From IMG/VR virus record IMGVR_UViG_2546826724_000006, positions 1 through 64,000 of that record: a DNA stretch of 64,000 nucleotides, one strand, 5' to 3'. The position numbers and the translations under genes were made by a program. Positions 33,027 to 56,216 of this stretch are shown here, piece by piece. This stretch comes from a virus (taxonomy: Duplodnaviria > Caudoviricetes). The first letter of the stretch is position 1. Each line of letters begins with the position of its first letter. The notes beneath the pieces are model-generated. The model searched no databases and was not told the origin of the DNA. It saw only the letters and a list, made by a program, of their open reading frames with translations.

Positions 33027-33050
33027 TAATCCCTTTCGTATCAATACCTT

Positions 33051-33080: not shown

Positions 33081-33196
33081 TCTACTGATTACCACCAGCA
33101 CATTATATATCAATGGGTTACAGCCGTTGACGGCTGCTACACATGCCATGACGCGCGCCATGGCCGCGCCACCGCAATCGCATCTCAGAGACTGCT

Positions 33197-33409: not shown

Positions 33410-33410
33410 C

Positions 33411-34135: not shown

Positions 34136-34244
34136 AATCTGAGATCGAGGCGGAAGGTCCCGTCTCGTTGCGAGCGCGCTGGGTGGTGATGAGGACCGCC
34201 GCCCGGCGCGCGAGCGCATGTCCGCAAACCTACGGAGACATCAC

Positions 34245-34694: not shown

Positions 34695-34917
34695 ACATCG
34701 GTTCGGTTGGGGACGACGGGTTGCCGGCACGATGGCGGGAGTTTGAGAACGTCTCTCGCTCTATCGCCATCGTCATGACCGAGAAGTTCGCGACCATGGG
34801 CGAGCTGGATACCATCTACGGCTCGCAGGACTTGGCCGATATGGTCGAGATCATCAGCATCAACGCGCACAACGCGCGGCTGCTACAGCCCAAACCGCGC
34901 TAGCTACAGGCCCCCAC

Positions 34918-35382: not shown

Positions 35383-35639
35383 AGGATACCGCCCCCTTCG
35401 GCACCGTCGAGACCGCGTGCGACTTCCTCGCCGAGATGGCGGCCGGCGTGATCGCGCACGCCTCCGTCATGCAGAGCTACGCTGAGGCCCGGTACTATCC
35501 CGGCTTGGACTACGCCACTCGGCACACCGTCGCGTTCCTGCGCGCGATGGAAGCCGCGCACGCCGAGGTGGAGCGCTCGCGCGCCGTCGTGGCCTACCGC
35601 AAAGGCGCCGAGGCTATCGGGCCGGGGCAGGGTGTCTGA
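35379..35639 (+). CDS. Hypothetical protein
   Basis: Coupled to the rep gene (TGATG). Confidence 0.5.
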   Translation: MKDTAPFGTVETACDFLAEMAAGVIAHASVMQSYAEARYYPGLDYATRHTVAFLRAMEAAHAEVERSRAVVAYRKGAEAIGPGQGV

Positions 35640-36889
35640 TGCGGGAGCGCCTAGACGATCTGCCGCCGCTCGGCGAGCCGGACGAAGACGGCCGGTGGAT
35701 CCCGCCTGAGGAAGAGGCCCCGCGCGCCACGCCTTTGCTGCGAGCCACGCCCTACGTCTACCGCCCGCCGGCCGAGATCCCGATCCGGGAGTGGGTGTAC
35801 GGCAAGCATCTGATCCGCAGGTTCTTGAGCACCACCGTGGCCCCCGGCGCTGTCGGGAAGTCGAGCCTCGTTCTGGTCGAGGCCATCGCCATGGTGACGG
35901 GCCGCCCCTTGCTCGGGATCCAAGTCCCGCATCGGCTCCGGGTTTGGGTCGCGAACCTTGAGGACCCGCTTGAGGAGCTAGAGCGCCGCGTCGCTGCGAT
36001 CTGTCTCCACTACGGCATTGACCCGCGCGAGTTGGAAGGACGCCTGTTCCTCGACAGCGGGCGCACGGCCGAGATCATCATCGCCCGCCGCGAGCGCGAC
36101 GGCGTGAAGGTGGCAGAGCCCCTTATCGCTGCCATCGTGCAGACACTGCGGGAAAACCGGATCGATCACCTGACGGTCGACCCGTTCGTCTCGTCTCACC
36201 GCGTGACGGAGAACGCCAACGATGAGATCGACATCGTGGCGAAGGCTTGGAACCGCGTCGCCGAGACGGCCGGCGTGTCGATCGAACTCGTCCACCACGT
36301 CCGCAAAGGGCAGGGCGGGGCAGGGGAGTTCACGGTAGAGGACGGCCGCGGTGCCGGTGCCCTACTCGCCGCCGCTCGCTCGGCCCGCGTGCTCAACCCC
36401 ATGACCAAGGACGAGGCCGCCAGGGCCGGGTTGCCGTCGCATCGGGGCTACTTCCGGACGGACAACGGCAAGGCCAATCTCGCGCCGCCGCCCGACCGCT
36501 CGGAATGGTTTCATCTCACCTCCGTCTCACTCGGCAACGGGCCGGCTGGGCTCGTGGATGCCAGCGACCACGTAGCCGTCGTGGAACCCTGGACATGGCC
36601 GGATGCCTTCGACGGGATCAGCCTCAACGATCTGATGACGGCTCAAACCGCCGTAGCCGAGGGCGGTCCGTGGCGTGCCAGCCCGCAGTCGCCGGCATGG
36701 GTCGGCAGGCCGATAGCCCGCGCCTTGAGGATGGACCCCGACGATAAGGGAGACCGCCAGCGCGTCAGCCGCTTGCTCAAGACGTGGATGGAGACCGGCA
36801 TGTTCGTGACGGTCGAAGCACAGGACGAGGCCCGTAAAGTCCGGCAGTTCGTGGAGGTAGGAACCCGCGCCAGTGCGACACCGGACTGA
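35639..36889 (+). CDS. RepA-like AAA (SF4-type) helicase / replication protein
   Basis: APGAVGKSS Walker A, NLED, TVDPF, LVHHVRKG, DGRGAGAL, GKANLAP. Confidence 0.85.
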   Translation: MRERLDDLPPLGEPDEDGRWIPPEEEAPRATPLLRATPYVYRPPAEIPIREWVYGKHLIRRFLSTTVAPGAVGKSSLVLVEAIAMVTGRPLLGIQVPHRLRVWVANLEDPLEELERRVAAICLHYGIDPRELEGRLFLDSGRTAEIIIARRERDGVKVAEPLIAAIVQTLRENRIDHLTVDPFVSSHRVTENANDEIDIVAKAWNRVAETAGVSIELVHHVRKGQGGAGEFTVEDGRGAGALLAAARSARVLNPMTKDEAARAGLPSHRGYFRTDNGKANLAPPPDRSEWFHLTSVSLGNGPAGLVDASDHVAVVEPWTWPDAFDGISLNDLMTAQTAVAEGGPWRASPQSPAWVGRPIARALRMDPDDKGDRQRVSRLLKTWMETGMFVTVEAQDEARKVRQFVEVGTRASATPD

Positions 36890-36899
36890 GGGGCCGGAT

Positions 36900-37080
36900 C
36901 TGCTCCACCACCACTACTCCCCCCTATAAGGGGGTGGAGCAAGTGGCGCAGTGGCGCAAAGATCCTCAAGCGCTCCACTGCACCACCTTGCGACGCTCCA
37001 CCATTCTCAGGTGGCGCAAGTCTCTGATCCGCCGGTATGGCGCTACCACATAGGGCAAACGGCGAGGCTTTGGCGCATAG
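36900..37080. repeat. Putative satellite origin with short iterons
   Basis: Clustered TGG(C/A)GC copies in both orientations just downstream of rep. Confidence 0.45.
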
Positions 37081-37255
37081 GTTCCGGCTATGGATCTGAG
37101 TGCGGACGATAGACAGCGGCACACAGGGGGACGTGTCGTCTGAAGGGGATTGGGGGACGTGTGGTCACGCGGACGCCGCCTCTGGATTTTTCCCGGCCGT
37201 TGGCGAAGCCAAACGCGGTCACGCGGGAACCCACGCTTGACATCGCCGTGGCGCT

Positions 37256-37295
37256 CTTTACAACTTGCTCAACGAACGTAGAGCATTTCGTAAAG
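37256..37295. promoter_or_regulatory. Imperfect palindrome; candidate res/operator site of the serine recombinase
   Basis: CTTTACaactTGCTCaACG-aa-CGTaGAGCAtttcGTAAAG directly upstream of the gene. Confidence 0.55.
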
Positions 37296-37303
37296 GCACA
37301 GCG

Positions 37304-37978
37304 ATGGCGACCGGATCCTTCGTCACCTACGCGCGAGTTTCGACGGCGAAGCAGGGCCGCTCCGGTCTCGGCCTCGACGCTCAGCGCGCCGCTGTCACGG
37401 CCTATCTGAACGGCGGCAAGTGGAGCGTCGTCGGCGAGTTCGTGGAGATCGAGAGCGGCAAGCGCGCCGACCGTCCCGAACTGGCGAAGGCCATCGCCGC
37501 TTGCCGGCTGTACGGCGCCAAGCTCGTTGTTGCGAAGCTCGACCGGCTCAGCCGCGATCCCGGCTTCCTGCGGGACCTTGAGCGCAGCGGTATCGACTTC
37601 GTTGCGGCCGACATGCCCGACGCCAACCGGCTGACGGTAGGCGTGATGGCCCTTGTCGCCGAGCAAGAGCGGGAAGCCATCTCGGCCCGCACCAAGGCTG
37701 CCCTACAGGCTGCCAAGGCCCGCGGGACCAAGCTCGGGGGCTTCCGGGGCTACACCCTCACCGAAGCCGACCACGCCGCCGCCAAGGCTGGCAGGGAGGC
37801 TCGCACACAGGTCCAGGCCGACCGCATCGGGGCGACCGTGGCCGAGATCAGGGCCGCCGGCATCACGTCGGCCAATGGCATCGCCAAGGCTCTCAACGAA
37901 CGCGGCATCCCGACTGCTAAGGGCGGTCAGTGGCAGGCCGTACAGGTCCAGCGGGTGCTGTCCCGCCTGGAAGCATAG
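37304..37978 (+). CDS. Serine recombinase (resolvase family)
   Basis: YARVST..Q, ESGK...RPEL, AKLDRLSR, EREAISARTK. Confidence 0.92.
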   Translation: MATGSFVTYARVSTAKQGRSGLGLDAQRAAVTAYLNGGKWSVVGEFVEIESGKRADRPELAKAIAACRLYGAKLVVAKLDRLSRDPGFLRDLERSGIDFVAADMPDANRLTVGVMALVAEQEREAISARTKAALQAAKARGTKLGGFRGYTLTEADHAAAKAGREARTQVQADRIGATVAEIRAAGITSANGIAKALNERGIPTAKGGQWQAVQVQRVLSRLEA

Positions 37979-38018
37979 GGGCATCCATTCCGGGTGCCTC
38001 GACACAGAGGACACCCAC

Positions 38019-38264
38019 ATGGCTCCCACCACCAACTACCAGAACACCATCGGCACGTCGGGCACCTACACGGTCGCCGTCACGCAGCGCGCGGGCACCA
38101 TCAACGAGGAACAACACCTCGGCTACGTCTACGCCGTCACCATCACGTCGGGCGGCGCCACCACCGAAGTCATCACCGTGCCGGCCCTGCCCGAGGGCTG
38201 CGTCCGCGCCAACACCGCTGGCCTCGCTGTCCTGCGCGCCCTCAAGACCGTGCAGGGGAGCTGA
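38019..38264 (+). CDS. Hypothetical protein
   Basis: GAGGA RBS; beta-rich, 81 aa. Confidence 0.55.
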   Translation: MAPTTNYQNTIGTSGTYTVAVTQRAGTINEEQHLGYVYAVTITSGGATTEVITVPALPEGCVRANTAGLAVLRALKTVQGS

Positions 38265-38269
38265 GCGCC

Positions 38270-38554
38270 GTGGGCGCCGTCGTCAGTCTCCACCCTGTCG
38301 TGACGGTCTCGGAGCGGTTCACCCACCTTGAGACCTATGACCGGCTCGGCAGGCACGAACTGATCCTCGCCCGGTCCGAGATCGGCGGCGGCCCCGCACT
38401 GTCGGTGCTGCTACTCCTGAACGAGCCGGACGGCGACGGGTTTGAGATCCTGTCATCCGTCCGCGAGCAACCCGGCGTGCGCGAGGCGCTAGCCATCGTG
38501 GCGCGGGCCGTCTCGCTCGCTGCGCTCCACCTGTTGCCGGACGATCCGCTGTAG
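38270..38554 (+). CDS. Hypothetical protein
   Basis: GTG start just after the previous stop. Confidence 0.4.
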   Translation: MGAVVSLHPVVTVSERFTHLETYDRLGRHELILARSEIGGGPALSVLLLLNEPDGDGFEILSSVREQPGVREALAIVARAVSLAALHLLPDDPL

Positions 38555-38691
38555 CCGGCGAGCCTCGTCAGCATAGCCTCAGATTTGGCCGCTGACGGCC
38601 GCTGACGCTCGACCGCTGTCCTGTAGCCAAAATCCGCCCACGCCAGTCCTGAGCCATCCTAGGCGCAGGGATCGGCATTCTGCGAGCCATC

Positions 38692-39063
38692 ATGCCCAAA
38701 GCACGCGCGGCCGTCTCGCGGTCGGCCATGACGAACGGCCGCCGCCTTCACCTGATCCGCCCGTCCGGTTGGACTGCCGAGGGGCGGCGCTTTCAAGACC
38801 TCGTTGAGGCCCTGACGGAGGAACGCGGCGGCGCTGCGGCCCTCGATGTCGCCCGGCAGGAAGCGATCCGCATGTACGCGCTGCTCAGCGTCGAGCGGAG
38901 CCGGATTGAGGTGGACATGGCCTCCGGCAGGCCCGTGGACGCGGAGCACTACGGGCGACTGTGCGACCGCGCCGACCGTCAGTATCGCCGCATGGGGCCG
39001 CCCCTGCCGCGCACCAAGCAATCGCTTAGGGATCAACTATTGCAAAGAGCAGGTAAGGCATGA
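38692..39063 (+). CDS. terS: Satellite terminase small subunit
   Basis: Helical 123-aa protein coupled (ATGA) to the second terL. Confidence 0.65.
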   Translation: MPKARAAVSRSAMTNGRRLHLIRPSGWTAEGRRFQDLVEALTEERGGAAALDVARQEAIRMYALLSVERSRIEVDMASGRPVDAEHYGRLCDRADRQYRRMGPPLPRTKQSLRDQLLQRAGKA

Positions 39064-40595
39064 AAATCATATGCTCCATGCGAGAAGCATTGGAAGATGA
39101 TAGACTACTTGGCACTGTTCTTCCAGGGGAAAGCTGGCGGAACTGGCGTATTCTTCTGATCGCCAGCCGGGGCGAGCCGCTGACGGCAGAGGAACGGGAG
39201 GTGTTCACCCGCCTGACGACCCGCGAGCGCGAGCCGGAGGAAGCGTGCGACGAAGTTTGGTCCGTAGTCGGGCGCGGTGGCGGCAAGTCGGCGGCCATGA
39301 GCGCGGCGGCTGCGTACTATGCCGGGTGCGTGGACCATACCGGCAAGTTCAAGCCGGGGCAGCGACTGCGCATTCCGGTGATGGCGACGGCGAAAGAGAC
39401 GGCGGCCGAGTGCCTGAACTACCTCAAGGGCATCTTTACCGAGATCGAGTTCTTCGCCGAGCTTGTCGAGTATGAGATGAACGGCCGGAAGCGGAGTGAG
39501 CCCCGCATCACGGAAAGCAAGATCAGCCTCGTCAACTCGGTGGACATCCTCGTCACGGCGGCCAACTTCAAGACGGTGCGCGGCGCGACGCTGATCGCCG
39601 CCTTGTTCGATGAGCTGGCCTTCTGGGCGCTGGACGGGCAGGCCAATCCGGATCGAGAGATCGCCCGCGCGACACGCCCCGGTCTCGGCCGCTACGGCGA
39701 CGGCGTGTTGCTCGTCATGTCCAGCCCCTACGCCAAGAAGGGGCTCTTATTCGAGACGTACAAGAAGCATTTCCGGCCGGACGGCGATCCGCGCGTGCTC
39801 GTCGTCCAGGCGCCGACGCTGGAGATGAACAACAACCCGGATCTGCGCCGGAAGATTGAGCGCGAATATGCCGACGATCCCGAGTCGGCGCGGGCCGAGT
39901 ACGGCGCGGAGTTCCGGGAAGGCGTCTCGGACTTCGTGAGCCGTGAAGTCGTGGATCAGTGTACGGACTTCGGTGTCCGTCAGCGAGAACCTGACCCGAA
40001 CGTCCAGTACACGGCCTTTATCGATCCATCCGGCGGCACCGGCAAGGACAGCATGACGCTTGCTGTTGCGCATCGGGAGAAGGACGGCTCCGTTATTTTG
40101 GACCTCGTTGACGGAGTGAAGCCGCCGTACTCCCCCGATGCCGTCTGCCAGCAGTTCGCCGCGACGCTCAAGCCGTTCCGGATCTACGAAGTCACGGGCG
40201 ACAACTTCGCAGCCGAGTGGCCCAAAGAGCTAATCCGCAAGTACGGCATCACCTACGTTCAGTGTCCGAAACCGAAGGCGGCGCTGTACTCCGAGTTTTT
40301 GCCGGCCCTGAACAGCGGCAAGGTGCGCTTGCTCGAACACGACAAGATGCGCAACGAATTGCTGAACCTTGAGCGCCGGACCAATTTCGGCGGAAAAGAC
40401 AGCATTGACCATCCGGCAAACGGTCACGACGATTACATTAATGCCGTTGCCGGTGTAGTATGGGCGGAGAGCAATGCATCCAAGCCCATCGTCATCTCGC
40501 CAGAGCTTCGAGAACTGGCGAAGACGCCGAACAGACGCACGCAGAGAGACGCCTTCAACTTCGTCATGGGCTACGGCCCCGGCCGACGCTTCTAA
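39060..40595 (+). CDS. terL: Satellite terminase large subunit
   Basis: VGRGGGKS, LFDELAF, MSSPY, FIDPSGG, HDDYINAVAG. Confidence 0.9.
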   Translation: MKIICSMREALEDDRLLGTVLPGESWRNWRILLIASRGEPLTAEEREVFTRLTTREREPEEACDEVWSVVGRGGGKSAAMSAAAAYYAGCVDHTGKFKPGQRLRIPVMATAKETAAECLNYLKGIFTEIEFFAELVEYEMNGRKRSEPRITESKISLVNSVDILVTAANFKTVRGATLIAALFDELAFWALDGQANPDREIARATRPGLGRYGDGVLLVMSSPYAKKGLLFETYKKHFRPDGDPRVLVVQAPTLEMNNNPDLRRKIEREYADDPESARAEYGAEFREGVSDFVSREVVDQCTDFGVRQREPDPNVQYTAFIDPSGGTGKDSMTLAVAHREKDGSVILDLVDGVKPPYSPDAVCQQFAATLKPFRIYEVTGDNFAAEWPKELIRKYGITYVQCPKPKAALYSEFLPALNSGKVRLLEHDKMRNELLNLERRTNFGGKDSIDHPANGHDDYINAVAGVVWAESNASKPIVISPELRELAKTPNRRTQRDAFNFVMGYGPGRRF

Positions 40596-40607
40596 AGGAG
40601 ACGCACA

Positions 40608-41087
40608 ATGGCTTTGATGAAACGCACCCGCGCTACCGCGCTAGACCGCGACCCCCTGGACCGCGATAAGCTCGACAACTTGATGCTGTTCCTGAAGGAC
40701 CGGCTCAGCCCCGACGACTTCGCTAAGTTCACCGACCTGATTGACGATCTGCAGGACGATGCAGAGGCTGCGAACCCCTCTCGTGAGATGGCGACGGACG
40801 CCCTGCCGGCTTCGATCCGCCGCGCGGTCCGCCGCGAGATGCGGAGTGCCCGCCTCCGCCTCTCGGGCGGCTCGTCCCTCGCGCAGGACGCGGCGCGCAT
40901 CAGCTCGTTCGAAGAGCGCTATCCGGGCGCCGCGAGGATTAAGGGCGACCCGATGCCGGGCGCTATGTACACGGCCCGCCGACCGGATCCGGTTCTGTCG
41001 CAGCCTGAGGCCCGCGCAGCGAGGGAAGCGAGCGCGGCTCGCATCTCTGCAATGATGGGCGGCCGCATCATCAAGGACGCTGAGTGA
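40608..41087 (+). CDS. Satellite scaffold-like protein
   Basis: AxD motifs; LSPDD and SFEERYPGAARI match helper scaffold LSPED and SFDERFGTSRI. Confidence 0.65.
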   Translation: MALMKRTRATALDRDPLDRDKLDNLMLFLKDRLSPDDFAKFTDLIDDLQDDAEAANPSREMATDALPASIRRAVRREMRSARLRLSGGSSLAQDAARISSFEERYPGAARIKGDPMPGAMYTARRPDPVLSQPEARAAREASAARISAMMGGRIIKDAE

Positions 41088-41857
41088 TGGTCGGGCCCCG
41101 CCGGCAGGAAGCCGTCATCTCGGCTTCCGAGCCTTCGCTTCGTTCTCCGGAGCGCCAAGCCCTCGCCGAAGCCATCGCCAAGGCTGAGGAGCACAACAAG
41201 GGTCTCGCCGCGTGCCGCGCCGCGATCCAGGCCGCCGAGGGGATGGAGGCGACCGCGGAGGCCGCCCTCCGAGATGCCCAAGCCGAAGTCGAACAGGCTA
41301 AAGCAAGCCGTGCCGCTGAGATCACGGCTGCGGCTGCGGCCGGGCAGTCCGTCCCGTCGAGCGATCGTCAGCGTCTTGCCCGCCAGCGCGAAGTGGAGGC
41401 GCAGGACGAACTAGAGGCCGTGCGATCCTCGCTTGAGGCCGTGCGGGCGCCGCTAAGTGACTGGGAATACTGGGCGCAAAATTGCGCTGAGAAGGTCCGC
41501 AAGGCTGCGGCCGATGTTGCTACTGCTCAGGTCCCGGAAGCGATTGCGGTAGCGCTCAGGGCGATCAAGAACGCCGAGGTTTGCGTCCGCTCGGCCTATG
41601 CGGCGCATAGCGCGGTAACCGATGTCGCGGGCGGCCAGGATCAGGCCATGTCGGCGCGCATCAACGCTCTGCTCAACTTCGTGCCGGGCACCTGGGACTA
41701 TCGCAATCCCAGCCGCGGGGACGGTCCCGAGTGGAACAGGGCTGTCGCAGCCTTGCTGACGGATCCCGACGCGCCCCTGCCGGCCGTGCGCGAGGTAGCG
41801 GACATGGTTCCCGGCGAGCCCGGTCCCGGCATCACCGGCCCGCGGCGCGTCGCCTGA
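41084..41857 (+). CDS. Coiled-coil hypothetical protein
   Basis: Ala/Glu-rich helices; C-terminal W...L.TDPDAPLP. Confidence 0.65.
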   Translation: MMVGPRRQEAVISASEPSLRSPERQALAEAIAKAEEHNKGLAACRAAIQAAEGMEATAEAALRDAQAEVEQAKASRAAEITAAAAAGQSVPSSDRQRLARQREVEAQDELEAVRSSLEAVRAPLSDWEYWAQNCAEKVRKAAADVATAQVPEAIAVALRAIKNAEVCVRSAYAAHSAVTDVAGGQDQAMSARINALLNFVPGTWDYRNPSRGDGPEWNRAVAALLTDPDAPLPAVREVADMVPGEPGPGITGPRRVA

Positions 41858-42078
41858 TCCCGCGCGATCACCGGCCCCTCTGAAGCAGCGGGCGCCGGCC
41901 GCGCGGCTAGTGCGGGGGCTTCTCGGCTTCACCCCGCATGGCGCCAAGCCAGTGAGTGGCGTTCCTCAAGTAACCGCTAGCAGGCGGGGCCGGGCTCATC
42001 CGGTTCGGCGACCCGCTCAAGATCGCCCTCGGCGCAGACCTCCCGCTGTGCCGGGGGCACTTCCTATCGGAGATCCAC

Positions 42079-42768
42079 ATGAGCAGCGGCGCAGGCAATT
42101 CGGGGAACGACGCCCCGGTCGGGCAGATGACTGTCCGCGATCCCAATTCGGAAGTGAACCGCGACTTTTTCCAGTCTCGCCAGCAATTCGGCGAGCGCCG
42201 GTTTCACTTCATGGCGAAGATCGTCAAGGTCAAGAATAAGAATAGCTTAACTCAACCTTGCACCGTCGATATTCAGCCGATCGTGAAGCAACTGGATGGG
42301 AGCGGCAAGGCTACCTCTCACGGGATCATCTACAACGTCCCCGTTCCGAGAAACCAGTCCGGCGATAGTGTGATCGTCAATGACCCAAGTGTCGGAGATG
42401 TAGGCAATTTCTCGATTTTGGACCGTGATCACAAATCAGCCCAAGCCAACGATTGGGCCGAAAGCAATCCTGGCAGCCAGCGCCGCAACAGCATGTCCGA
42501 TGCGGTGTTCCACGGCACGCTTCCGCGCAAGGCGCAGGAAGTGAAGCAGTACGTCCGCATGGACGAGAACGGCGTCGATATCCGGCAGCGTGACGGACAC
42601 ACCTTCGCGATGACCAAGGACGGCTTCAATCTCAACGGCGTGAAGATCGACAAGGACGGCAACTTCACTGCTCCGGGCAAGGTGGTGGCAGGGCAGGGGA
42701 CCGCCGATGAAGTCTCCCTGCAAAGCCATCTGCACGGCAGCGGGCCGGCGCCGACGCCAGGGAGCTAA
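42079..42768 (+). CDS. Baseplate central spike (Gp138/GpV-like), satellite
   Basis: TVDIQPIV, PSVGDVG, RRNSMSDA; C-terminal SLQSHLH metal-binding tip. Confidence 0.85.
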   Translation: MSSGAGNSGNDAPVGQMTVRDPNSEVNRDFFQSRQQFGERRFHFMAKIVKVKNKNSLTQPCTVDIQPIVKQLDGSGKATSHGIIYNVPVPRNQSGDSVIVNDPSVGDVGNFSILDRDHKSAQANDWAESNPGSQRRNSMSDAVFHGTLPRKAQEVKQYVRMDENGVDIRQRDGHTFAMTKDGFNLNGVKIDKDGNFTAPGKVVAGQGTADEVSLQSHLHGSGPAPTPGS

Positions 42769-42771
42769 AGC

Positions 42772-43623
42772 ATGGCCTTCGCCGCGAAGTTCATCAACGT
42801 CACCATAGAGCTGCAAAATCCTGGCTCGCAAGGCGGGGTCAACAAAGCGACCATCAAGAACCATCGTGTCGCCGTTGCCGTCGAACAGAACGGCAGTCCG
42901 GACATGGGCAAGGCCACGTGCAGTATCTATGGCCTTAGCCTCTCGCTAATGAACCAATTAACGCAGCTTCCATTCATGGCAGAGGCTGTCGGCAACAACA
43001 AAATCATGATTGAGGCCGGCGAGGGCAACGGCGTCCCGAAAAAGGTCTACTCGGGGACGATCTTCGCGGCGTTCGCCGACATTCGCGCTCCTATTGGCGC
43101 CTTGCGGGTGGATGCGCTCGGCGGATACTACAATGCCGTCGCTCCGGCGACGCCGACAAGCAAAGAGGGGGACGCGGATGTCGCAACCCTCCTCGGCCAG
43201 ATCGCCAAGCAAGGGCAACTCACCCTCGAAAATAACAACGTGTCGTGCGTCGTGAGAGATCCTTATTTGCCAGGCTCTAATCGCCAGCAAATCAAGCATC
43301 TCGCCGAGTCGGCCGGCATCAATTGGCTAATTGAAGACGATAAGCTCGCGATTTGGCCGAAGAACGGTAGCCGGAATGGCGACGCCGTGAAGGTAAGCAA
43401 GCTGACCGGTATGGTTGGCTATCCGCGCTACACGGCTAGCGGGATTGAAGTCGTCGCGACGTGGAACCCGAACCTGCGATATGGCGGAAGTATTCAGGTC
43501 GAAAGCGAATTAACCCCGGCCTGCGGTACGTGGTACATCGTGAACATTGCGCATGAACTTGAAAGTGAGACGCCGAATGGAAGGTGGTTCACGATCCTTA
43601 CCTGCACGAGATTGAAGACTTAG
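42772..43623 (+). CDS. Baseplate hub protein, satellite
   Basis: IYGLSLSLMNQL, IEAG, TGMVGYP, NPNL..GG.I.VES, HELESETPNGRWFT. Confidence 0.82.
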   Translation: MAFAAKFINVTIELQNPGSQGGVNKATIKNHRVAVAVEQNGSPDMGKATCSIYGLSLSLMNQLTQLPFMAEAVGNNKIMIEAGEGNGVPKKVYSGTIFAAFADIRAPIGALRVDALGGYYNAVAPATPTSKEGDADVATLLGQIAKQGQLTLENNNVSCVVRDPYLPGSNRQQIKHLAESAGINWLIEDDKLAIWPKNGSRNGDAVKVSKLTGMVGYPRYTASGIEVVATWNPNLRYGGSIQVESELTPACGTWYIVNIAHELESETPNGRWFTILTCTRLKT

Positions 43624-43632
43624 AGGTACAAG

Positions 43633-45872
43633 ATGGCTACGGTTCTGGATACTCTTGTCGTACAACTTGGCCTCGACCCTAAGGCTTTCGTCAAGGGTAC
43701 ACAGCAGACCACGGGTGCGCTCGCCAAGACCCGTGAGGGGGCGCTCAAGGAAGGCAAGCAGATCGAGCGCTCGCTGGACAACGCCAGCGAGTCCGTCGAG
43801 CGCCTTGCCCGCAACGCCTTGAAACTGGCAGCGATTTTCACCGGCGGGCGAGCCCTCGGAACATTCATAACCGATATCGGCCGGGCGGACGCCGCTATGG
43901 GCCGGATGGCTGACCGCCTGGGCGTAGCGCCCGAACGGGTCGCGGCCTTCGACAACGCCATCAAGCGGATGGGAGGCTCGGCCGGCGAGGGCGCCGCCGC
44001 CTTCCAGCGCATGTCGGATACCGTCAACGAATTGCGATCGACAGGAAATTCCTCGGCCCTGCCGGCGCTCGCCAAGCTACAGGCCATGTCCGGCCAGCAA
44101 ATCCGGTTGAACGGCGAGACGGAGGAGTCGCTAGGCGACCTCGCCGAAGCCGCCAAGCGGGCCTCTGAGCGCGTCGGCGCCGCGCGGGCCAGCTTTGAGC
44201 TTCGGAGCGCCGGCTATAGCGATGCCGCGATCAATCAGCTTCTCAAGGGCCGTGCCGAGCTACAGAAGGCCCTGGCGCAGTCACAGCGATCCGGCCTCGT
44301 GTCGAAGGCCGACGCCGACGCCGCCCGCGCGCCCTCGGGGCTCAGTATGAGGATCTGTCCGACAAGGTGGCGGACTTCGGCCGGCGGATCAGCACGGCGC
44401 TGACGCCGATCCTCACCGACCTGATGAAGCGGTTCGGCGACTGGATCGACAAGAACAAAGAATGGCTCGCGCAGGACATTGCGACGGAGGTCGGCAAGTT
44501 CGCGACCGAGCTGCGCAAGATCCCCTGGGATGACGTAGCCAAGGGGATCAAGGAGTTCGTCAAGGGCGCGAACGACGGCGCGCAGGCGGTCGGCGGCTGG
44601 ACCCGTGTCGCGGAGATTTTCTTCGGGCTCTGGATCGGCAGTAAGGTGGTGGGGGTTCTCGCCAGCATCGCCGCGATCCGGAACGCCCTCGTCATCGGCG
44701 ACACGTCGTTGCTCGCGGCCATGGCGCGCGTCGGCATTCCGGTCGCAATCGGCGCCGTCGCGATGGGCCACGGTTTCCAGACGCCAGAACAGGCCGCGAA
44801 AGACCCGGATCAGGCTCTGCTTCAGCGCGAGGGTATCGACCGCCGGGCGCGGGTGCGCGGGTGGCTCGGAGACAGGTACGATGACGTGCGGCGGTTTGGG
44901 CGCCGTCTACTCGGCGGCGGTAGCGCGGAGGCCGGCGAGGACGACCGTCACTCCGATGGCATTCGTCGGCGCGGTCGCCGGGCAGCTCAGAATTATGATG
45001 GGAGCGGTGCGACGCCTCCCCGGGGTGATGGTAGCGGCAATGCCCGTGCGGCTCGCACTGCTGACATGATGCGGTATGCGATGGATCAGCTAAAGCGCGA
45101 GGGTGTGCCGGAAGCGCATCTGCGGCAGTCGGCGGCGCACCTCGTCGGACAAGCGACGATGGAGTCGGGACTAGACCCGAACAAGACCCATGATCCCGAT
45201 GCCAGTGGCCGTCCGACCGGCTATGGCATCTATGGCGCGCGACTGGTTCGGCGCGACCGGATGCTGCGCTGGCTGGAAAAGAACGGCTACGCGAAGAACT
45301 CTGCGGAAGGCCAGATGCGGTACATGTCGCATGAAGCCATGAACGATAAGACCTACGCAAGAACCCGCAGCATTCTGATGGGGGGCGGATCCGGTAATAT
45401 CGACGCGGACACCGACACCATCACGAAAAACTTTGAGAGCCCGAAGTTCGTCAACCGTCGTTCCGGTGCCGTTCGGAATGCCCTGCGGACTGGGGCCTCG
45501 CCAGAGCCGCAGCGCGAGAAGGACATTAAGACGATCCAAGACACGGTTTCCGGCGCCCGCAAGCCTGAAGTTCTGGCGGATCCCAAGGACGAACGCCGCA
45601 AGCCGATGGCCTCGCTATTCTACGGCGACACCCCGCCTGGCGTGCAGGCGGGTGCGCGATCCGCAGTCGCGCAACAGCAGAGTGCCCTGGCGGATCGAGC
45701 TGCCGTCACTCAGAACGACAACCGGAGCACAAGCACCTCCACGCAGGAAGCTCACTTCCACGGCGACATGGTGTTTCAGAACGCCGGGGACAGTCGCGAG
45801 ATCGCCAGCAACCTGCGGGCGCGCTTGAAGGAGCCGCAGTTCGTCTCGGCGGCAAATACCGGACAGGCGTAG
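43633..45872 (+). pseudogene. Satellite tape measure protein with tail-lysozyme domain, frameshifted at ~44326-44332
   Basis: Both ORF halves align with helper TMP 61162-63588; removing one GC from CGCGCGC gives a 745-aa ORF. Confidence 0.85.
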
Positions 45873-45876
45873 GCGA

Positions 45877-46182
45877 CTAGCGGGCTCCGAACGTGTCGGG
45901 GAAGCTTTTAAGCACTCTAGCGCAGAGGGCTTTGCGGCCTTCCTCGGCCTCGCGGGCGTCAAAGACCTTGATCCCCGCAGATAGCCCAGCCTCAAGGCTC
46001 GCTTTGGTCATCTGAGTGGCACACTCTCGGGCTTGCTGAATGTAGGCTTCGGGGTAGTGCTCGAACCCGCACTGGAACTGAGCGCGGCTGAGGAAGCCAT
46101 GCGTCTTAAGAAATTTCGGGCAGTCGGCGGCCTGCGCCGAGACGGACGTGGCGATGATCGCGGCGGCGAGGGTGTAGCGCAT
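45877..46182 (-). CDS. Secreted/periplasmic protein convergent on the satellite TMP gene
   Basis: Signal peptide MRYTLAAAIIATSVSAQA; four Cys. Confidence 0.7.
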   Translation of the reverse strand: MRYTLAAAIIATSVSAQAADCPKFLKTHGFLSRAQFQCGFEHYPEAYIQQARECATQMTKASLEAGLSAGIKVFDAREAEEGRKALCARVLKSFPDTFGAR

Positions 46183-46417
46183 CCGGGCAACATATACCCC
46201 CGGTTGAGACTGTCGAGATGACGCGCAGCACGAAACCCCCTGCGCCTTGCCGGGCGAGGGGTGTTCGTGTCATGCTGTGGATGGAGCTTCGCAACTCCCG
46301 AGATGGACCCTTGCCGGGGTTGGCATCTCAGTCCGTGAAAGGCGTGCGCTACGGCTTGCCGGCCGAAGTGTCGCCTCTAAAAACCGCGCTCACACCGTGA
46401 GCCGCGACCGGCTCACT

Positions 46418-46504
46418 ATGCCGGGAGTGCCACGGTTATACAAGAGCCTTCGGGTGAAGGCCGTGGCGCACGTTCTCACGGGCGTGTTGCGAAGCTCCTG
46501 GCGC
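46418..46504 (+). ncRNA. C4/CI-like antisense RNA
   Basis: Cloverleaf-like stems; unpaired TCAC and TTGCGAA complementary to flanking CCGTGA and TTCGCAA sites. Confidence 0.7.
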
Positions 46505-46578
46505 CAGCGCCGACCGCTGGCATGGGTGGACCCCTTCGCAAGGGAAAGCCCCCGGCCTTCGCAAGCCGGTTCTAGACC

Positions 46579-47253
46579 GTGAGCAACGAACTTATGTCAT
46601 TCCACGACCACCGCACGCCGCGCATCGCGGCTGTGCTTCCGACTGCCAAGCGGCAGTACGGACCCGTCACGCTCGCCATCCGAGCGATGCGCGCCGCCTA
46701 CGGCATCAATGCCAAGGCCCCGGCCCGTCGAGCCGGCCCCGTCACCGAAGCCATCCGCACCATGCGGGCCGCCGTGCCGGACTTCGATGCCAACCCCGAC
46801 CTCATTGCCCTGCGCCGGGCGCTCGCTAATCGGATCGAGACGGACATTGCCGCGCTCGACATGCTGGGCGGGGATCCGGACCTTGAGTCGGATTTTGTCA
46901 TGGAGGAGTGCGCCGCCAACGGCACGCTCTACCTGCGCGGCAGATCCTCGGACGACGAGCCGAGCTTGTGCGGCGCAGGTACTCACGAAGGCGGCGTGCT
47001 CGGCGGTCTGACGCCATCGCAGGGCGGTGACGACCGTGAGGACGAGAACGAGCACGGCGGCGACGTTCAGGACGAACCGCACGATCCCGAGGAGGACGGC
47101 GACGTTCATGAGATCGGCACGGCGGTCGCGGGTTTCGACGGGACCAACTATCTGCGCACAAGCCTGAACCGTCGCGTCAGCGTCATTCCGCGCGGCGTCG
47201 TGATCGTTGGACCGGACGGCGCGGGTTACACCGTGTCGCGGGTGGCGCGATGA
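46579..47253 (+). CDS. Hypothetical protein (immunity operon)
   Basis: IAALDMLGGDPDLE followed by an acidic tract. Confidence 0.6.
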   Translation: MSNELMSFHDHRTPRIAAVLPTAKRQYGPVTLAIRAMRAAYGINAKAPARRAGPVTEAIRTMRAAVPDFDANPDLIALRRALANRIETDIAALDMLGGDPDLESDFVMEECAANGTLYLRGRSSDDEPSLCGAGTHEGGVLGGLTPSQGGDDREDENEHGGDVQDEPHDPEEDGDVHEIGTAVAGFDGTNYLRTSLNRRVSVIPRGVVIVGPDGAGYTVSRVAR

Positions 47254-47765
47254 CCGCCTCCACCCGTCGCGCCGCGCTCGGCGCCATCCTCGCGGCTCCG
47301 CTGGCATCCGTGCCCGCCGTCGCCGCTCCCGAACGAGCGGACTATCGCGCTCGGCTACTCGCCGCCTATGCGGACGACAGAGCTTGCCGTCCGATCAACT
47401 GCGTCGCTGAGATGGGCTCTTTTGAGGATGAGGTTTGCGATCACATCCTTTTGCACTCATGGGCCGTGCAGACGGAGGTAGCGACACTGCCGCCGCCAGC
47501 CACTCTCGAGGGATTGGCGCTCGCCGCGATAGCGACGGCGCTCGCTTGGGAAGGGGAGGATCCGAAGTCTGAGTCGAAGGACGCCTGCGCCATCGGTTTG
47601 ATCCGTGCCGTTCTGGCGTTCACTGGCGCCACCATGCCGGCAGGCTTCATCGGCTTTGCTGATGAGCCGGATCACATGGCGCGCGACAAAGCCGTTCATG
47701 ATGAACGGCCTGGACGCCTCGCGGCGTGGGCGGTTGCGAAAGCGCAGGTGCAGTCATGCGCCTGA
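47250..47765 (+). CDS. Hypothetical protein
   Basis: TRRAALG N-terminus; PATLEGL motif. Confidence 0.6.
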   Translation: MTASTRRAALGAILAAPLASVPAVAAPERADYRARLLAAYADDRACRPINCVAEMGSFEDEVCDHILLHSWAVQTEVATLPPPATLEGLALAAIATALAWEGEDPKSESKDACAIGLIRAVLAFTGATMPAGFIGFADEPDHMARDKAVHDERPGRLAAWAVAKAQVQSCA

Positions 47766-48064
47766 TCTATTCCTTCCTCGCCGTCTGGCAGATCCGGCTT
47801 GCCCGGTTCGACATCGCCCGATCCGAACGCCTTACCGACGATGCGCAGGAAGCCTTCGCCAAGGCCGGCGAGCGAGCACGTCTCGCAGACCGTCTCATGG
47901 TTCGGGCGGGCCTGCCCGTCATCTTCGGACGCTGATACCCGGCCCGGCCGCTCGCGCGGTCGGAATTGTCGCCAAGTTGGCGGCATATGCCCCGAGCCCG
48001 GCCGGGCCTCACGACAGCCCTCGGCGCAATTCCGTGCCGGGGGCATCTTCGTGAGGATGCCACC

Positions 48065-48835
48065 ATGACACAGACCATGCCGGTCCTGGCGGTCCACGAC
48101 GGACGCCCGATGGCCGATAGCCGCGACGTAGCAGCTACGTTCGGGAAAGAGCACAAGCACGTGTTGGAAGCCTATCGGAACTGCCATTGCAGCGCCGGCT
48201 TCCGGGAGACGAATTTTCGACCGTTCAAAATCAAGGACTTAACCGGCGAGAGCACCAGCCACGTCCTGATGACGAAGAATGGCTTTGCCTTCCTCGTGCT
48301 CGGCTTCACGGGCGCAGCGGCGGCGGTGTTCAAGGAGGCATACGTTGAGCGCTTCGACGCGATGGAAGCGGAGCTGCGTCGCCAGTCTGGTCCGGTTGTG
48401 CCTCAGAGCCTGCCAGAAGCTCTCAGGCTGGCGGCGGACCTCGCTGAGCAGGTAGCCACGCAAAAGGCCGAGATCGCCGTCCTGGCGCCCCGTAGCGAGG
48501 CCCTGGCGGTCATCTCTGACGCGGACGGCTCGCTGTGCGTGACCGACGCTGCAAAGGCCCTACAGATGCCGCCGGGCGAGCTGTGGGCCTACCTGCTCAG
48601 CGCGCAGTGGATCTACCGCCGGGAGAAGGACGGGCACCCCGTCGCCTACCAGTCCAAGCTGACGGCCGGCTACCTTGAGCACAAGGTGGTCCCGATCCCG
48701 ACCGCCCCCGGTAAGACCTGGGCTCGGCAACAGGTCCGCATCACGCCGAAGGGCCTAACCGCCCTCGCGCAGCGGATCCCCCTCGACCGGCCGGGCGGAT
48801 TGTTCGGCCGCCTCGCCGCGCCCGCCAGCGCCTAA
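48065..48835 (+). CDS. Rha-family regulator fused to an antirepressor (ANT/KilAC) domain
   Basis: DSRDVAATFGKEHKHVL, MTKNGFAFLVLGFTG, PQSLPEALRLAADLAE, QVRITPKG. Confidence 0.88.
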   Translation: MTQTMPVLAVHDGRPMADSRDVAATFGKEHKHVLEAYRNCHCSAGFRETNFRPFKIKDLTGESTSHVLMTKNGFAFLVLGFTGAAAAVFKEAYVERFDAMEAELRRQSGPVVPQSLPEALRLAADLAEQVATQKAEIAVLAPRSEALAVISDADGSLCVTDAAKALQMPPGELWAYLLSAQWIYRREKDGHPVAYQSKLTAGYLEHKVVPIPTAPGKTWARQQVRITPKGLTALAQRIPLDRPGGLFGRLAAPASA

Positions 48836-48885
48836 CCGCAACAGCCCGGCCGTGGCTGGCGGCCGGGCGCACTAGGAGATCAGAC

Positions 48886-50022
48886 ATGGCAAGCGTCCGA
48901 CTGAGGCGGTGCAAGGGCAAGAAGGGGGCGATGGTTGAGGTTTGGGTCGTGGAGTGGACCGACGCCAAGCGCAAGCGGCATCGCCATACCCCAAGGCCCA
49001 ACACCAAGGCCGCCGCCGACAAACTCGCGCGTAAGCTCGAAAAGGATCCGCACCTTTCGAATAGATTTCTACCGATCACCGTCAAAGACGTTTGCATGAA
49101 TTGGCTTCGCCATATTGAGCAACGTTATGAGGACGGGGACAACATGTCTATGGAAAAACTCCGGCAAAATTGGAGCATCGTTTTCAAAAACATCATTCCA
49201 TATCTGGGCGATCTTAAGGCGGCCGATCTGTCGCCAATCCATGTGCAAGAATTTTCCGACATGATGAGAGACAAAAGACGTGGAGCCAAGTCTCCAATCG
49301 TAATCAGGAACACAATCAGCGTACTTGGTCGCGCCCTTACCGAAGCGCAGCGGCTTGAGATTATCCCTCGCAACGTCGTTAAGGACGTGCCGCCACATAT
49401 GCCGAAGATACCGAAGGCTTCGATCGAAGTTCCGGACCGATCTGACCTGCGCCAGTTGCTAAACAATGCGGACGGCGCAATCGGCCTTATGGTCCGCATA
49501 GCTATCTTCACGGGCTTGAGAGTGGGAGAAATCCGCGCGCTGATGTGGCCACAAATTGATTTTGAGAAAAACTTGATCCACGTCAAACATTCTGCGACGC
49601 CTAGAGGAAAGATCAAAACTCCGAAAACAAAGGCTGGAAATCGAACTGTCCCAATACCGCCGATGCTGACCTCTGAACTCCGTAAATGGAAGATTGCCAA
49701 TATCTCAAATCGAATGGGCTTTCTGTTCCCCAACTCAAGATGCCCAGCAGAATTGGCGATAAGCCAAACACAGGTTCAGAATTTGTGGCGAAGGCTTAAA
49801 GTTAAGAGCGAGGTTAAGCCAATTCATTTCCATGCCTTGCGGCACGCAGCGGCCAGCTTGTTCATCGAAACAGGTCTCTCTCCGCAGAGACTAAAGGTCC
49901 TTATGGGGCACGCAAATATCAACATGACTTTCGATACCTACGGCTATCTCTTCCCGGACGACGGTGCGGCACACATTGCTAGTACGCAAGTGGAGACCAC
50001 TCTACTGAACGGGGTGCTGTGA
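48886..50022 (+). CDS. Tyrosine integrase A (satellite; AT-richer)
   Basis: TGLRVGEI, PKTKAG, FHALRH, MGH, TYGY. Confidence 0.9.
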   Translation: MASVRLRRCKGKKGAMVEVWVVEWTDAKRKRHRHTPRPNTKAAADKLARKLEKDPHLSNRFLPITVKDVCMNWLRHIEQRYEDGDNMSMEKLRQNWSIVFKNIIPYLGDLKAADLSPIHVQEFSDMMRDKRRGAKSPIVIRNTISVLGRALTEAQRLEIIPRNVVKDVPPHMPKIPKASIEVPDRSDLRQLLNNADGAIGLMVRIAIFTGLRVGEIRALMWPQIDFEKNLIHVKHSATPRGKIKTPKTKAGNRTVPIPPMLTSELRKWKIANISNRMGFLFPNSRCPAELAISQTQVQNLWRRLKVKSEVKPIHFHALRHAAASLFIETGLSPQRLKVLMGHANINMTFDTYGYLFPDDGAAHIASTQVETTLLNGVL

Positions 50023-50023
50023 G

Positions 50024-51238
50024 ATGGCTAGCGTTCGCAAAAGAACCTGGACTGGGCCGGACGGGAAACCCTGTGAGACCTGGACCGTGGAGTTCACCGA
50101 CTCTGATGGTCGCCGTCGCCGTGAGACACCTAAGAGCGGTCTCAAGAAGGATGCCGAGGCAATCCGCAAGCGGATTGAGCGGGAGATGGACGACGGGACG
50201 TTCGTGGCCGCCTCGCAAACCGTGACGGTGGCCGCGCTTTGTGACCGCTATCGCGAGCATGTGGAGGCCAAGCTCCGTGACGGTCGAATTGGTCCCGCTC
50301 GTATCATCCAGCTCGACTACCATTTCAAATCCATCAAGAAACATCTCGGATCCGTTCTGGCGACCGATTTGACCCCTGACATGATTGACCGGGCCTATGT
50401 AGCCCTTGTGAAAGACGACGGATTGGTGCCGACAACCGCTAAGCATCGGCTCTATACCCTGAAAATGATGCAGGACTTTGCCGTCAAGAAGGGGCTTATG
50501 GTGAAGCTCCCGGCCGATGCCGCGCTCAAGGAATTGCGGGGCATCGAACGGAAGCCCATCCGAACCTTCAGTCGGGACGACGCGGTATTGCTCATAAAGA
50601 CCGCCTCGGTCCGCCGACCAGGAGGACGGCCGTACAATGCGGCTCTACTGGAATGCCTTGTCAACCTTGCCGCGTTCTGCGGGCTTCGGTACGGGGAGAT
50701 TATTGGTCTCACGCGCGCGAACGTGGATTTGACGGGGCGCATGATCCATGTGCGTCAGAGCTTCTGTCGCTATACGGTGAAACTGAAGGGACCAAAGACA
50801 GCGGCGGGCGTGCGGGATGTCCCGATGCCTATGCATGTCGTCGCTCTTGTGCGGCGTTGGATTGAAACCTACTCTGTTCCGAACAGCCTCGACCTCGTGT
50901 TCACCATTGCTGAAGGGAAGTGGCTGGAGCAATCCAATTTCCGCAACAACATGTGGCTCCCGTTGCTGAAGCGCGCAGGGCTTGAGCACAGCGATGCGCT
51001 GCACTTCCACAGCCTTCGGCACTTCGCGGCGTCGTGGATGATCGAGTGCGGCATGCCGCTCACCGATGTGGCGCGGATCATGGGGCACAGCAAATTCGAC
51101 ATGACGTTGCAGGTTTACGCGCACCCAGTGCATTCGCCGGCTCATGCGCGCGAAGCGATTGATCGCATGGCGGATCGGTTCCTAGCGCTGCCGAAGACCA
51201 TCGAACTGCCGGTAGCGGCGCCACAGATTGAAGCCTAG
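50024..51238 (+). CDS. Tyrosine integrase B (satellite; next to attR)
   Basis: CGLRYGEI, PKTAAG, FHSLRH, MGH, VYAH. Confidence 0.92.
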   Translation: MASVRKRTWTGPDGKPCETWTVEFTDSDGRRRRETPKSGLKKDAEAIRKRIEREMDDGTFVAASQTVTVAALCDRYREHVEAKLRDGRIGPARIIQLDYHFKSIKKHLGSVLATDLTPDMIDRAYVALVKDDGLVPTTAKHRLYTLKMMQDFAVKKGLMVKLPADAALKELRGIERKPIRTFSRDDAVLLIKTASVRRPGGRPYNAALLECLVNLAAFCGLRYGEIIGLTRANVDLTGRMIHVRQSFCRYTVKLKGPKTAAGVRDVPMPMHVVALVRRWIETYSVPNSLDLVFTIAEGKWLEQSNFRNNMWLPLLKRAGLEHSDALHFHSLRHFAASWMIECGMPLTDVARIMGHSKFDMTLQVYAHPVHSPAHAREAIDRMADRFLALPKTIELPVAAPQIEA

Positions 51239-51303
51239 GCGCGCCATGAGCGCGCCATGGCAAAAAATGCCACGCTAAATCAGAGGGTTAGTGGGTGTAA
51301 ATT

Positions 51304-51317
51304 TACCAGACCATCTC
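51304..51317 (+). repeat. attR core TACCAGACCATCTC
   Basis: Direct repeat of 32997-33010. Confidence 0.9.
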
Positions 51318-51999
51318 TGAGTACGGGGAGCTTGAGGTTGAGCGTGCCGGTCTCGCCGGCATCAACCTGGTCGCCGAAAAGGACAACGCTGCCGCGACCG
51401 TGATGGGTCGTCTTGAGAACACCGTGTCGTTCTACGGCGTGGCTGGGCTCCAGAATTACGGCTTCACTAACGACCCGTCGCTGTATGCCGTTCTGACCCC
51501 GGCGACGAAGGCTGCCGGCGGCACGACTTGGTTCACCACGGGCGGCGCCCCGAACGCCACGGCCAACGAGGTCTACAACGACTTCCTGTCCATGTTCGCG
51601 CAGCTCGTGAACCAGACTGCCGGCCTCGTCGAGGCTACCGATCGCTTGGTTTGGGCGCTCCCGCCGCAGCAGGCCGTCGCGCTGGGCTTCATCAACCAGT
51701 ACAACGTGAAGGTTCGTGAAGCCATTCAGGCCGAGTTCCCGAGCCTGCGCATCGTGACCGCCGTCCAGTACGGCAAGCAGAGCGCGCAGAGCCCGATGGG
51801 CCTGTCGGCCGGCAACATGACCCAGCTCTTCGCCGAGACGATTGACGGTCAGGAGACGGGCTTCAACGCCTACGCCGAGAAGATGCGCTCGCACAACGTC
51901 GTCACCGACCTGTCGAGCTACAAGAAGAAGTGGTCGGGCGCGACCTGGGGTGCCGTGATCAAGGTCCCCTATGCCATCGTCGGCATGGTGGGCATCTGA
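51304..51999 (+). CDS. Major capsid protein, 3' part
   Basis: Open frame from the repeat (YQTISEYGELEVERAG...FYGVAGLQNYGFTNDP...GMVGI); in frame with the 5' part. Confidence 0.88.
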   Translation, partial: YQTISEYGELEVERAGLAGINLVAEKDNAAATVMGRLENTVSFYGVAGLQNYGFTNDPSLYAVLTPATKAAGGTTWFTTGGAPNATANEVYNDFLSMFAQLVNQTAGLVEATDRLVWALPPQQAVALGFINQYNVKVREAIQAEFPSLRIVTAVQYGKQSAQSPMGLSAGNMTQLFAETIDGQETGFNAYAEKMRSHNVVTDLSSYKKKWSGATWGAVIKVPYAIVGMVGI

Positions 52000-53852: not shown

Positions 53853-53884
53853 TCGCCCTGGCGACACGTTCAATTGGTCATTTG

Positions 53885-56202: not shown

Positions 56203-56216
56203 ATACGGCCACCCGC

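Follow-up and report, generated by a model that had tools for sequence, protein, structure and literature searches.

Why would a mobile element lodged in a prophage encode the core of a contractile tail tip and no tube, sheath or fibres? This question is raised by a 64,000-nucleotide stretch of viral DNA, hereafter called the window, which makes up the first 64 kb of the 87,028-nucleotide IMG/VR record IMGVR_UViG_2546826724_000006. PHROG and Pfam scans of the proteins encoded by the record identified a contractile-tailed prophage, and the closest relatives with a name belong to Methylobacterium and Methylorubrum. An integrative element splits the prophage's major head gene in two; this element is about 18.3 kb long, is located at about 33013-51303 and by its gene content looks like a satellite with the prophage as its helper: it has two integrases, a primase-helicase, an anti-repressor and a large terminase (TerL) of its own and is without genes for a head shell, portal, sheath or tube. 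It also encodes a tail assembly chaperone (TAC), a tape measure protein (TMP), a baseplate hub and a central spike, the proteins from which a contractile tail is started along its axis. Since these four proteins form such a starting complex, we deem it the most economical reading that the satellite nucleates hybrid tails from helper parts, and we consider this reading fairly probable.

The gene at 42079-42768 (plus strand) is predicted from its fold to encode a central, membrane-piercing spike of 229 amino acids, of the contractile-tail type found in phi92, P2 gpV and E217. The protein had no Pfam or PHROG match of its own above cut-off, and a sequence search of the PDB gave chance matches only. 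We found 33 homologues and built an alignment of 35 sequences, from which AlphaFold produced a model with a pLDDT of 69 and a pTM of 0.52. A Foldseek search of the PDB with this model retrieved solved spikes, including those of E217 (8eon_F, E = 1.1e-7), 9cuy_Y (1.1e-7), Orf41 of phage SN (4ru3, 7.2e-7) and phi92 (3pqi, 6.4e-6), as well as the central spikes of PhiTE, Pam3, P2 gpV, Mu and R2 pyocin; 11 matches had E <= 0.001. Like the solved spikes, the model consists of an N-terminal barrel followed by a beta-helical needle. The match to the N-terminal domain PF18352 fell under the cut-off of 26.1 bits for the satellite protein (12.7 bits, E = 0.13), and this domain matched 8 of the 35 family members at E <= 1, with a best value of 2.1e-5. 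A His-x-His motif near the C-terminus is invariant in the alignment (H217 and H219); in spikes, such motifs at the tip bind metal.

The adjacent gene at 42772-43623 (plus strand) encodes a protein of 283 amino acids for which the sequence evidence for a baseplate hub is solid: residues 8-266 match Pfam PF22759 (E217_GP41) with 67.7 bits (cut-off 27), PHROG 196 matches at 6.9e-54, and sequence matches in the PDB include gp19 of Pam3 (2.7e-7), the hub of PhiTE (1e-4) and gp41 of E217 (1.4e-3). The TMP follows at 43633-45872 (plus strand), where it is read in two frames in the window (43633-44403 and 44367-45872). Both halves match PHROG 9570 (4.9e-17 for the N-terminal and 1.3e-25 for the C-terminal half), and the C-terminal half contains a lysozyme domain (Pfam Phage_lysozyme2, PF18013; 39.4 bits, cut-off 28.2). 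An earlier note on this DNA, made from the letters and translations of the window, had taken the spike, hub and TMP as the whole module. These three stand, and a fourth part had been missed, namely the TAC at 34218-34694 (plus strand), whose G-like frame matches PHROG 1932 at 8e-38 and which stands about 7-8 kb upstream of the other three genes. A T-like extension in the -1 frame (34658-34903, plus strand) is open for 81 codons. A two-product chaperone with such an extension is a mark of long-tailed phages. The predicted set for starting a tail, with TAC and its -1 extension, TMP, hub and spike, is in this respect complete.

All four proteins are encoded by diverged copies of the helper's own genes, with identities of 45-64%. 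The helper TAC (60536-61021, plus strand, PHROG 1932) is 58% identical to that of the satellite, and the two -1-frame extensions share 41 of 79 aligned residues. In the helper, a canonical GGGTTTT at 60922 is in register for a -1 shift, and the conserved extension ends just before the start of the TMP. The helper TMP (61162-63588, plus strand, PHROG 9570) has 808 amino acids and is 50% identical to the satellite TMP over residues 1-232, 36-45% over the next approximately 110-225 residues and 29% over the last approximately 129 residues; the middle part is divergent, and a VLADP.DERRK motif is common to both translations. The homology proposed in the earlier note for the repaired TMP of 745 amino acids is thereby borne out by an open frame, shared ends and a shared motif. 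That note had also suggested a comparison with the helper hub and spike past 64 kb, where both counterparts were found: the hub at 65671-66534 of the record (45% identity) and a spike of 232 amino acids at 66531-67229 (64%). When the satellite tail proteins were searched against the whole record, they matched their helper counterparts only.

The rest of the particle is missing from the element. Among 30 packaging and virion proteins of the helper compared with the element, 5 had a match at E <= 0.01, and these were the C-terminal end of TerL, the TAC, the TMP, the hub and the spike, whereas the sheath, tube, neck, wedge and fibre proteins had none. Likewise, no PHROG match to a sheath, tube or fibre was obtained among the element open reading frames (ORFs) scanned, nor to a portal, prohead protease or head shell, and the helper versions of the latter three were without a match in the element. 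That a spike, hub and TMP are encoded without tube, sheath or fibres, as the earlier note had stated, is confirmed by the ORFs, by their Pfam, PHROG and fold matches and by this comparison.

The TMP changes frame near 44326-44334 in the window. We placed Logan contigs of four public sequencing runs (X1-X4) on positions 42000-46000; run X3 had no depth at the break. Two letters at 44326 are missing from the contigs of all three covering runs (X1, X2 and X4), among them a 19,141-nucleotide contig of X1 that is otherwise identical to the window, and removal of these letters leaves the TMP in one uninterrupted frame of 745 codons. Because the contigs lack the two letters and the resulting frame is open, the break most likely reflects a mistake in the deposited sequence or a variant present in a minority, and not decay. 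The repair made in the earlier note is therefore right as to the 745-codon frame, although it probably only restores the true sequence. A minority of broken TMP alleles may exist besides the intact one. A programmed frameshift in the TMP was considered and rejected, given that a slippery site is missing and that the two letters are just not present in the contigs of the runs.

The contigs also indicate that the module genes are maintained. Of the 390 differences from the window in the X2-X4 contigs, 40 were listed, and 34 of these 40 are located at codon position 3 (20 of 21 in the spike, 3 of 6 in the hub and 11 of 13 in the TMP), which deviates from the expectation of one third (binomial p = 2e-11) and is the ground for our conclusion that the genes are kept under maintenance. 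The contigs of X1, X2 and X4 also cover 79 nucleotides upstream of the spike start, the place where related phages described below have the TAC gene, and they therefore look like the satellite arrangement. Nor is the module decayed in all of its homologues, an outcome that the earlier note had named as one that would speak against it. Two loci (L007 and L015) of a family of elements marked by the satellite TerL have the same backbone as in the window, consisting of an integrase, a resolvase or primase-helicase, a 123-amino-acid protein, the terminase and two unknown proteins, and they carry intact TMPs of 835 and 737 amino acids, respectively, together with a hub and/or a neck protein.

The origin of the cassette was indicated by phage loci (L083-L093) that a search with the spike alignment retrieved. 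In the phage group of the helper, these tail genes are arranged in three or more different orders. The helper-type contigs (L085-L090) have the order TAC-TMP-two genes-hub-spike-gp25-J, two sister phage contigs from IMG/VR (L083 and L084) have the order sheath-tube-two genes-TAC-spike-hub-TMP, and L092 and L093 have a third order. The succession of spike, hub and TMP, which the earlier note had taken for a reversal of the usual order, is consequently not the satellite's own reversal, since both sister phages have it. The sheath and tube of the sister phages are 88% and 97% identical to those of the helper, while their hubs are 67-70% identical to the satellite hub and 48% to the helper hub, and the N-terminal part of their TMP is 76% identical to the satellite TMP and 47-52% to the helper TMP. 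In the hub tree, a split with a support of 93/100 separates all helper-type hubs from the hubs of the satellite and the two sister phages. Hub and TMP fall into two deeply separated allele classes in the phage group (<50% identity), in contrast to tube and sheath with their 88-97% identity. By these comparisons, the satellite carries a natural alternative tail-tip cassette that works in phages with a near-helper tube. The satellite and the sister phages share the TAC-spike-hub-TMP order and have similar hub and TMP alleles, but the cassette of the sister phages is located in a full tail operon after the sheath, tube and two tail genes, whereas that of the satellite follows the terminase and two unknown genes and has its TAC moved upstream.

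The borders of the element are precise. At the left junction, the attL core is located at 32998-33012 (plus strand) and the frame of the head gene ends a few codons after 33012; at the right junction, the attR core is located at 51304-51318 (plus strand) and the head gene resumes, with a C-terminal part that matches positions 143-321 of the PHROG 264 profile. The two cores form a direct repeat of 15 imperfect nucleotides, 11 of which are exact. In all three related proviruses the head gene is unsplit and in frame, and the N- and C-terminal parts in the window overlap by exactly five duplicated codons; the core sequence is nearly identical at the homologous site in two of the three. The element is co-oriented with the head gene and has all of its genes on the plus strand, and its precise excision would restore the helper head gene. 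Together with the two intact integrases, the attachment repeats argue for a live element. An assembly chimera was also considered as the origin of the element and was rejected, because the head gene is split exactly and in frame, its core is duplicated and the module is spanned by a single 19-kb contig of X1.

How could such a set of genes be used? Following induction, the satellite would excise from the helper head gene and thereby restore that gene. Its TAC, in a short and a -1-extended form, the TMP, which bears a cell-wall hydrolase, a hub trimer and the spike for piercing would form an initiator complex, on which the wedge, tube-initiator, tube, sheath and fibres of the helper would assemble, and the product would be hybrid tails on satellite-filled heads. 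The injection core of these tails would be unlike that of the helper, with a TMP of 745 instead of 808 amino acids, another hydrolase domain and other hub and TMP alleles. The tail would perhaps be slightly shorter, by roughly 7-10 nm if each of the 63 missing residues accounts for about 1.5 angstrom, and satellite tails could assemble or function under conditions that block cores of the helper type. The satellite tail proteins would in this case be expressed, and the satellite would benefit from them. That the satellite nucleates its own tails on helper tube and sheath had been proposed in the earlier note; the complete and maintained set, and a helper-like tube beside similar alleles in the two sister phages, are in favour of this proposal, while we infer the incorporation into particles.

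A precedent for such hybrid tails is provided by the PLEs of Vibrio cholerae, elements that resemble phage-inducible chromosomal islands and are so far the only satellites for which such tails have been demonstrated. According to the passages on tails in a recent report, PLE11 puts its own TAC, TMP and hub (BhuB) into chimeric tails derived from its helper ICP1, based on western blot, mass spectrometry and electron microscopy, and its particles exclude the TMP and BhuB of ICP1 and have tails that are 10 nm shorter (PMC12987554, Nature 2026). The PLE11 TMP is also described there as escaping Rta, an inhibitor of the helper TMP that PLE11 itself encodes (PMC12987554). The statement of the earlier note that PLEs supply their own TMP and chaperone agrees with these passages, which add the hub. 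PLE11 (and likewise PLE1/PLE4) and the present element are alike in having no tube, sheath or fibres, in having a diverged TAC, TMP and hub and in having a contractile-tailed helper. The present element appears to be unrelated to PLE11: it has an alphaproteobacterial host and encodes its own large terminase and a spike too. The copies are 45-64% identical to those of the helper here, as compared to a reported 20-41% for PLE11 (PMC12987554), and PLEs exploit a lytic phage while the present element is embedded in a prophage gene.

Several observations weigh against the proposed mechanism. The satellite lacks the two proteins for which the helper has genes between those of TMP and hub (64440-65674 of the record), so that its core would have to fit the helper versions, and these are only 65-76% identical to the versions of the type-B phages (L083/L084) that have the same cassette. 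A slippery heptamer of the form XXXYYYZ is missing from the satellite TAC in 34641-34700, where the stop is preceded by just a run of five C. When the intergenic regions of satellite and helper were compared for a shared promoter-like motif, only words of 9-12 nucleotides emerged, at chance level. Whereas PLE11 has Rta, no Rta-like inhibitor of the helper TMP was identified among the element ORFs scanned with Pfam and PADLOC. As for the intactness of the module, the window sequence itself carries the TMP frame break, and another contig of X1 extends over just a part of this site. Run X1 is possibly the source sample of the record and hence perhaps not independent, and Logan contigs drop rare variants. 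The codon-position count, finally, is drawn from the 40 listed differences of 390.

With its only attachment site in the helper head gene, the satellite would have to enter cells that already carry the helper. The idea of the earlier note that the different core might let it enter such helper lysogens would fit its embedded position. In a stronger form of this idea, the tail-tip cassette would be what makes the helper-embedded life possible: a core of different alleles would pass helper-encoded exclusion or host defences directed at the core of the helper, and the cargo of the family would be swapped by recombination according to the type of helper. We regard this stronger form as conceivable, albeit unlikely.

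The same genes could alternatively serve to interfere with the helper. The satellite copies would then be poison subunits that enter or cap the tail-initiation complexes of the helper and lower its yield, while being dispensable for the transfer of the satellite. Blocking of tail assembly by satellites and prophages is reported for the Tai systems (PMC11364771) and for the Rta of PLE11 (PMC12987554), and the copies have diverged as paralogues from proteins whose function requires joint assembly. One poison subunit would suffice for this, however, and the satellite has kept a whole coherent set, including a full-length enzymatic TMP, of which like alleles work as a normal cassette in the two sister phages. 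Interference is for these reasons an improbable explanation.

The module could also be inert cargo, either a remnant from the time when a satellite backbone recombined with a type-B phage or part of a decaying second prophage, with genes that have no present role. The broken frame of the TMP in the window, the distance of about 7-8 kb between the TAC and the other three genes and the large variation of cargo past TerL among family members are in favour of this reading. The frame break is, however, missing in the run contigs, the differences fall with a strong bias on codon position 3, the extension of the TAC is kept open, other genomes contain compact elements that share the backbone and have an intact TMP, and precise attachment repeats are accompanied by two intact integrases, all of which makes inert cargo a rather improbable reading. 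The least probable of the three, though by a small margin, is that the satellite is a vehicle and not a user of the cassette, which would serve the helper lineage as a reservoir of tail-tip alleles swapped by satellite-helper recombination: this would account for the three or more gene orders, the two deep hub and TMP allele classes on a near-constant tube and the replaced TMP middle in the close relative X4 (751 letters by 757), but protein identities of 45-50% for the hub and TMP leave little DNA homology for recombination, and a comparison within 32000-52500 revealed no repeats at the DNA level that the two modules have in common. Hybrid tails remain the preferred reading.

How does the element, on this reading of hybrid tails, relate to other satellites? 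Phage-inducible chromosomal islands of the capsid-forming type (cf-PICIs) reportedly make their own heads and borrow tails. The present element resembles them in having its own packaging enzyme and taking the rest of the particle from the helper, but it has tail-tip genes instead, and no match to a head shell, portal or protease was found among the ORFs scanned. Some cf-PICIs and PLE-like elements have putative tmp genes according to the legend of Extended Data Fig. 10 in PMC12987554. The helper-embedded PICIs (HE-PICIs) of Enterobacteria are satellites embedded in the late genes of prophages (Tommasini, Mageeney, Williams 2023, PMC10111431), and the present element is likewise helper-embedded, with a head gene that is split at 33012/51304 with a 15-nucleotide repeat and contiguous in three of three relatives. 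HE-PICIs are described there as AlpA/primase PICIs, often with a capsid gene, and thus differ in host group and gene content; tail Pfams are used there as prophage signatures and matched none of the satellites of that study (PMC10111431). The present element differs further in having its integrases at the downstream end and a tail-tip cargo. The EPIPs of Mycolicibacterium aichiense are satellites with a TMP and particles of altered tail length (bioRxiv 2025, PMC12822802), whose helper is a siphophage and which encode a serine integrase and a small terminase; a hub, spike or chaperone is not reported for them (PMC12822802).

From these reports, chimeric tails (PLE11), TMPs in satellites and helper-embedded satellites (HE-PICIs) are already known. 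What is new here is a different satellite lineage, a fuller tail-core set that includes the spike and the embedded position in a helper head gene. With TAC, TMP, hub and spike, the present element has the fullest satellite tail-core set so far, and it would join the helper-embedded satellite and the chimeric tail, which have been published separately, in one element. Our literature search found no paper that joins phage satellites with Methylobacterium and none that combines satellite, tail assembly chaperone, tape measure, helper phage and spike. If the proposal is true, satellite-built hybrid tails would be a recurrent strategy that extends beyond the PLEs of cholera phages to a terminase-carrying element family in plant- and soil-associated Alphaproteobacteria. 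A natural control is provided by the sister phages, in which this cassette operates together with a tube that hardly differs from that of the helper, and the locus would be a clean system for how the initiator complex picks its tape measure and for the role of the tail core in entry and exclusion.

The satellite TerL, encoded at 39060-40595 (plus strand; PHROG 2 at 9.1e-21), is the marker of the element family. One search found 2616 TerL relatives. Single-protein TerL scans of genome contigs and viral contigs gave no close relatives, so that an alignment was needed; the alignment search yielded 448 relatives, and 80 of these loci were kept. In these 80 loci, tblastn with seeds from family loci detected a TMP in 15, a hub in 7, a neck or tail-completion protein in 7, a chaperone in 5 and, by the seeds used, neither a sheath nor a tube in any. 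In Methylobacterium or Methylorubrum, a TMP is present downstream of TerL in 12 of 18 loci. Three of the remaining six end less than about 3 kb past the terminase, one ends at about 4 kb, one keeps about 80 nucleotides, and the last has a hub and a neck protein with no TMP match. As seen in PHROG scans, the TMPs of the family are of several unrelated kinds and belong to at least three PHROG groups: a myophage-type TMP is present in L007, L008, L015 and L016, a siphophage-type TMP in L005 and L011, which have a chaperone, and in L003, which has no chaperone match, and another type in L012. A head protein is combined with a TMP of 1368 amino acids in L017, and a fibre with a tail spike in L014. 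Across loci L003-L082, the virion cargo located about 1-7 kb downstream of the terminase match differs strongly.

The wall-degrading part of the TMP appears to be swapped often. In run X4, the segment 44782-45534, which includes the lysozyme region, has 751 letters exchanged for 757 unrelated ones between flanks that are alike. Run X2 also loses its likeness to the window in this segment, and the TMPs of loci L007 and L016 have amidase- or peptidase-like parts in place of the lysozyme domain.

The gene set of the element, all on the plus strand, comprises a Holliday-junction resolvase, the TAC, the primase-helicase, a small serine recombinase, the 123-amino-acid protein, TerL, two proteins of 159 and 257 amino acids of no known family, the spike, hub and TMP, the anti-repressor and the two integrases. 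The integrases are tandem tyrosine integrases (48886-51238, plus strand; PHROG 1 at 1e-63 and 5.2e-64, and Pfam Phage_integrase), both of which are full-length and located at the downstream end of the element; one of them may derive from a second element. A DNA search of the module against phage records gave no match, and a PADLOC scan of 11 unassigned element ORFs identified no defence family and thereby no candidate for an analogue of Rta or Tai. The TerL of the satellite and that of the helper (25854-27101) are alike only in the last 75 residues, with 37% identity (40347-40571 versus 26886-27095). In other phages, the C-terminal end of TerL docks on the portal, and the satellite TerL may be fitted to the helper portal if its end docks there.

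The 159-amino-acid protein encoded after TerL (40608-41087) had no usable match in an Atlas feature search, and its match to the end of the helper prohead protease/scaffold covers only 20 residues, at chance level. In the corresponding proteins of L007 (11773-12303) and L015 (11761-12291), the last 37-90 residues are 40-51% identical to the C-terminal end of the helper protease/scaffold (31778-32032). Conceivably, the small protein after TerL imitates a scaffold and in this way diverts the assembly of heads. The 257-amino-acid protein (41084-41857) is conserved in L007 and L015 with 56-58% identity, and its model is a long helical hairpin. An Atlas feature link of this protein to clusters of the P4 protein Psu (score 0.95, 5 of 30 hits) was supported neither by a Pfam match nor by a Foldseek match in the PDB at E <= 0.001, and the assignment as Psu-like was rejected, so that the element does not show the Psu/Sid-type capsid proteins of P4-like satellites.

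In the helper, PHROG and Pfam scans also identified a portal, a prohead protease, the sheath at 58070-60070 and a tube. PDB sequence searches with the two proteins encoded between its TMP and hub gave nothing usable. Past the end of the window follow genes for two wedge proteins (one gp25-like, one J-like) and for the fibres. By an ORF screen, two segments of the late region, 28735-30575 and 53852-56353, contain no structural gene on the plus strand and some ORFs on the minus strand, and these segments may be further inserts or morons.

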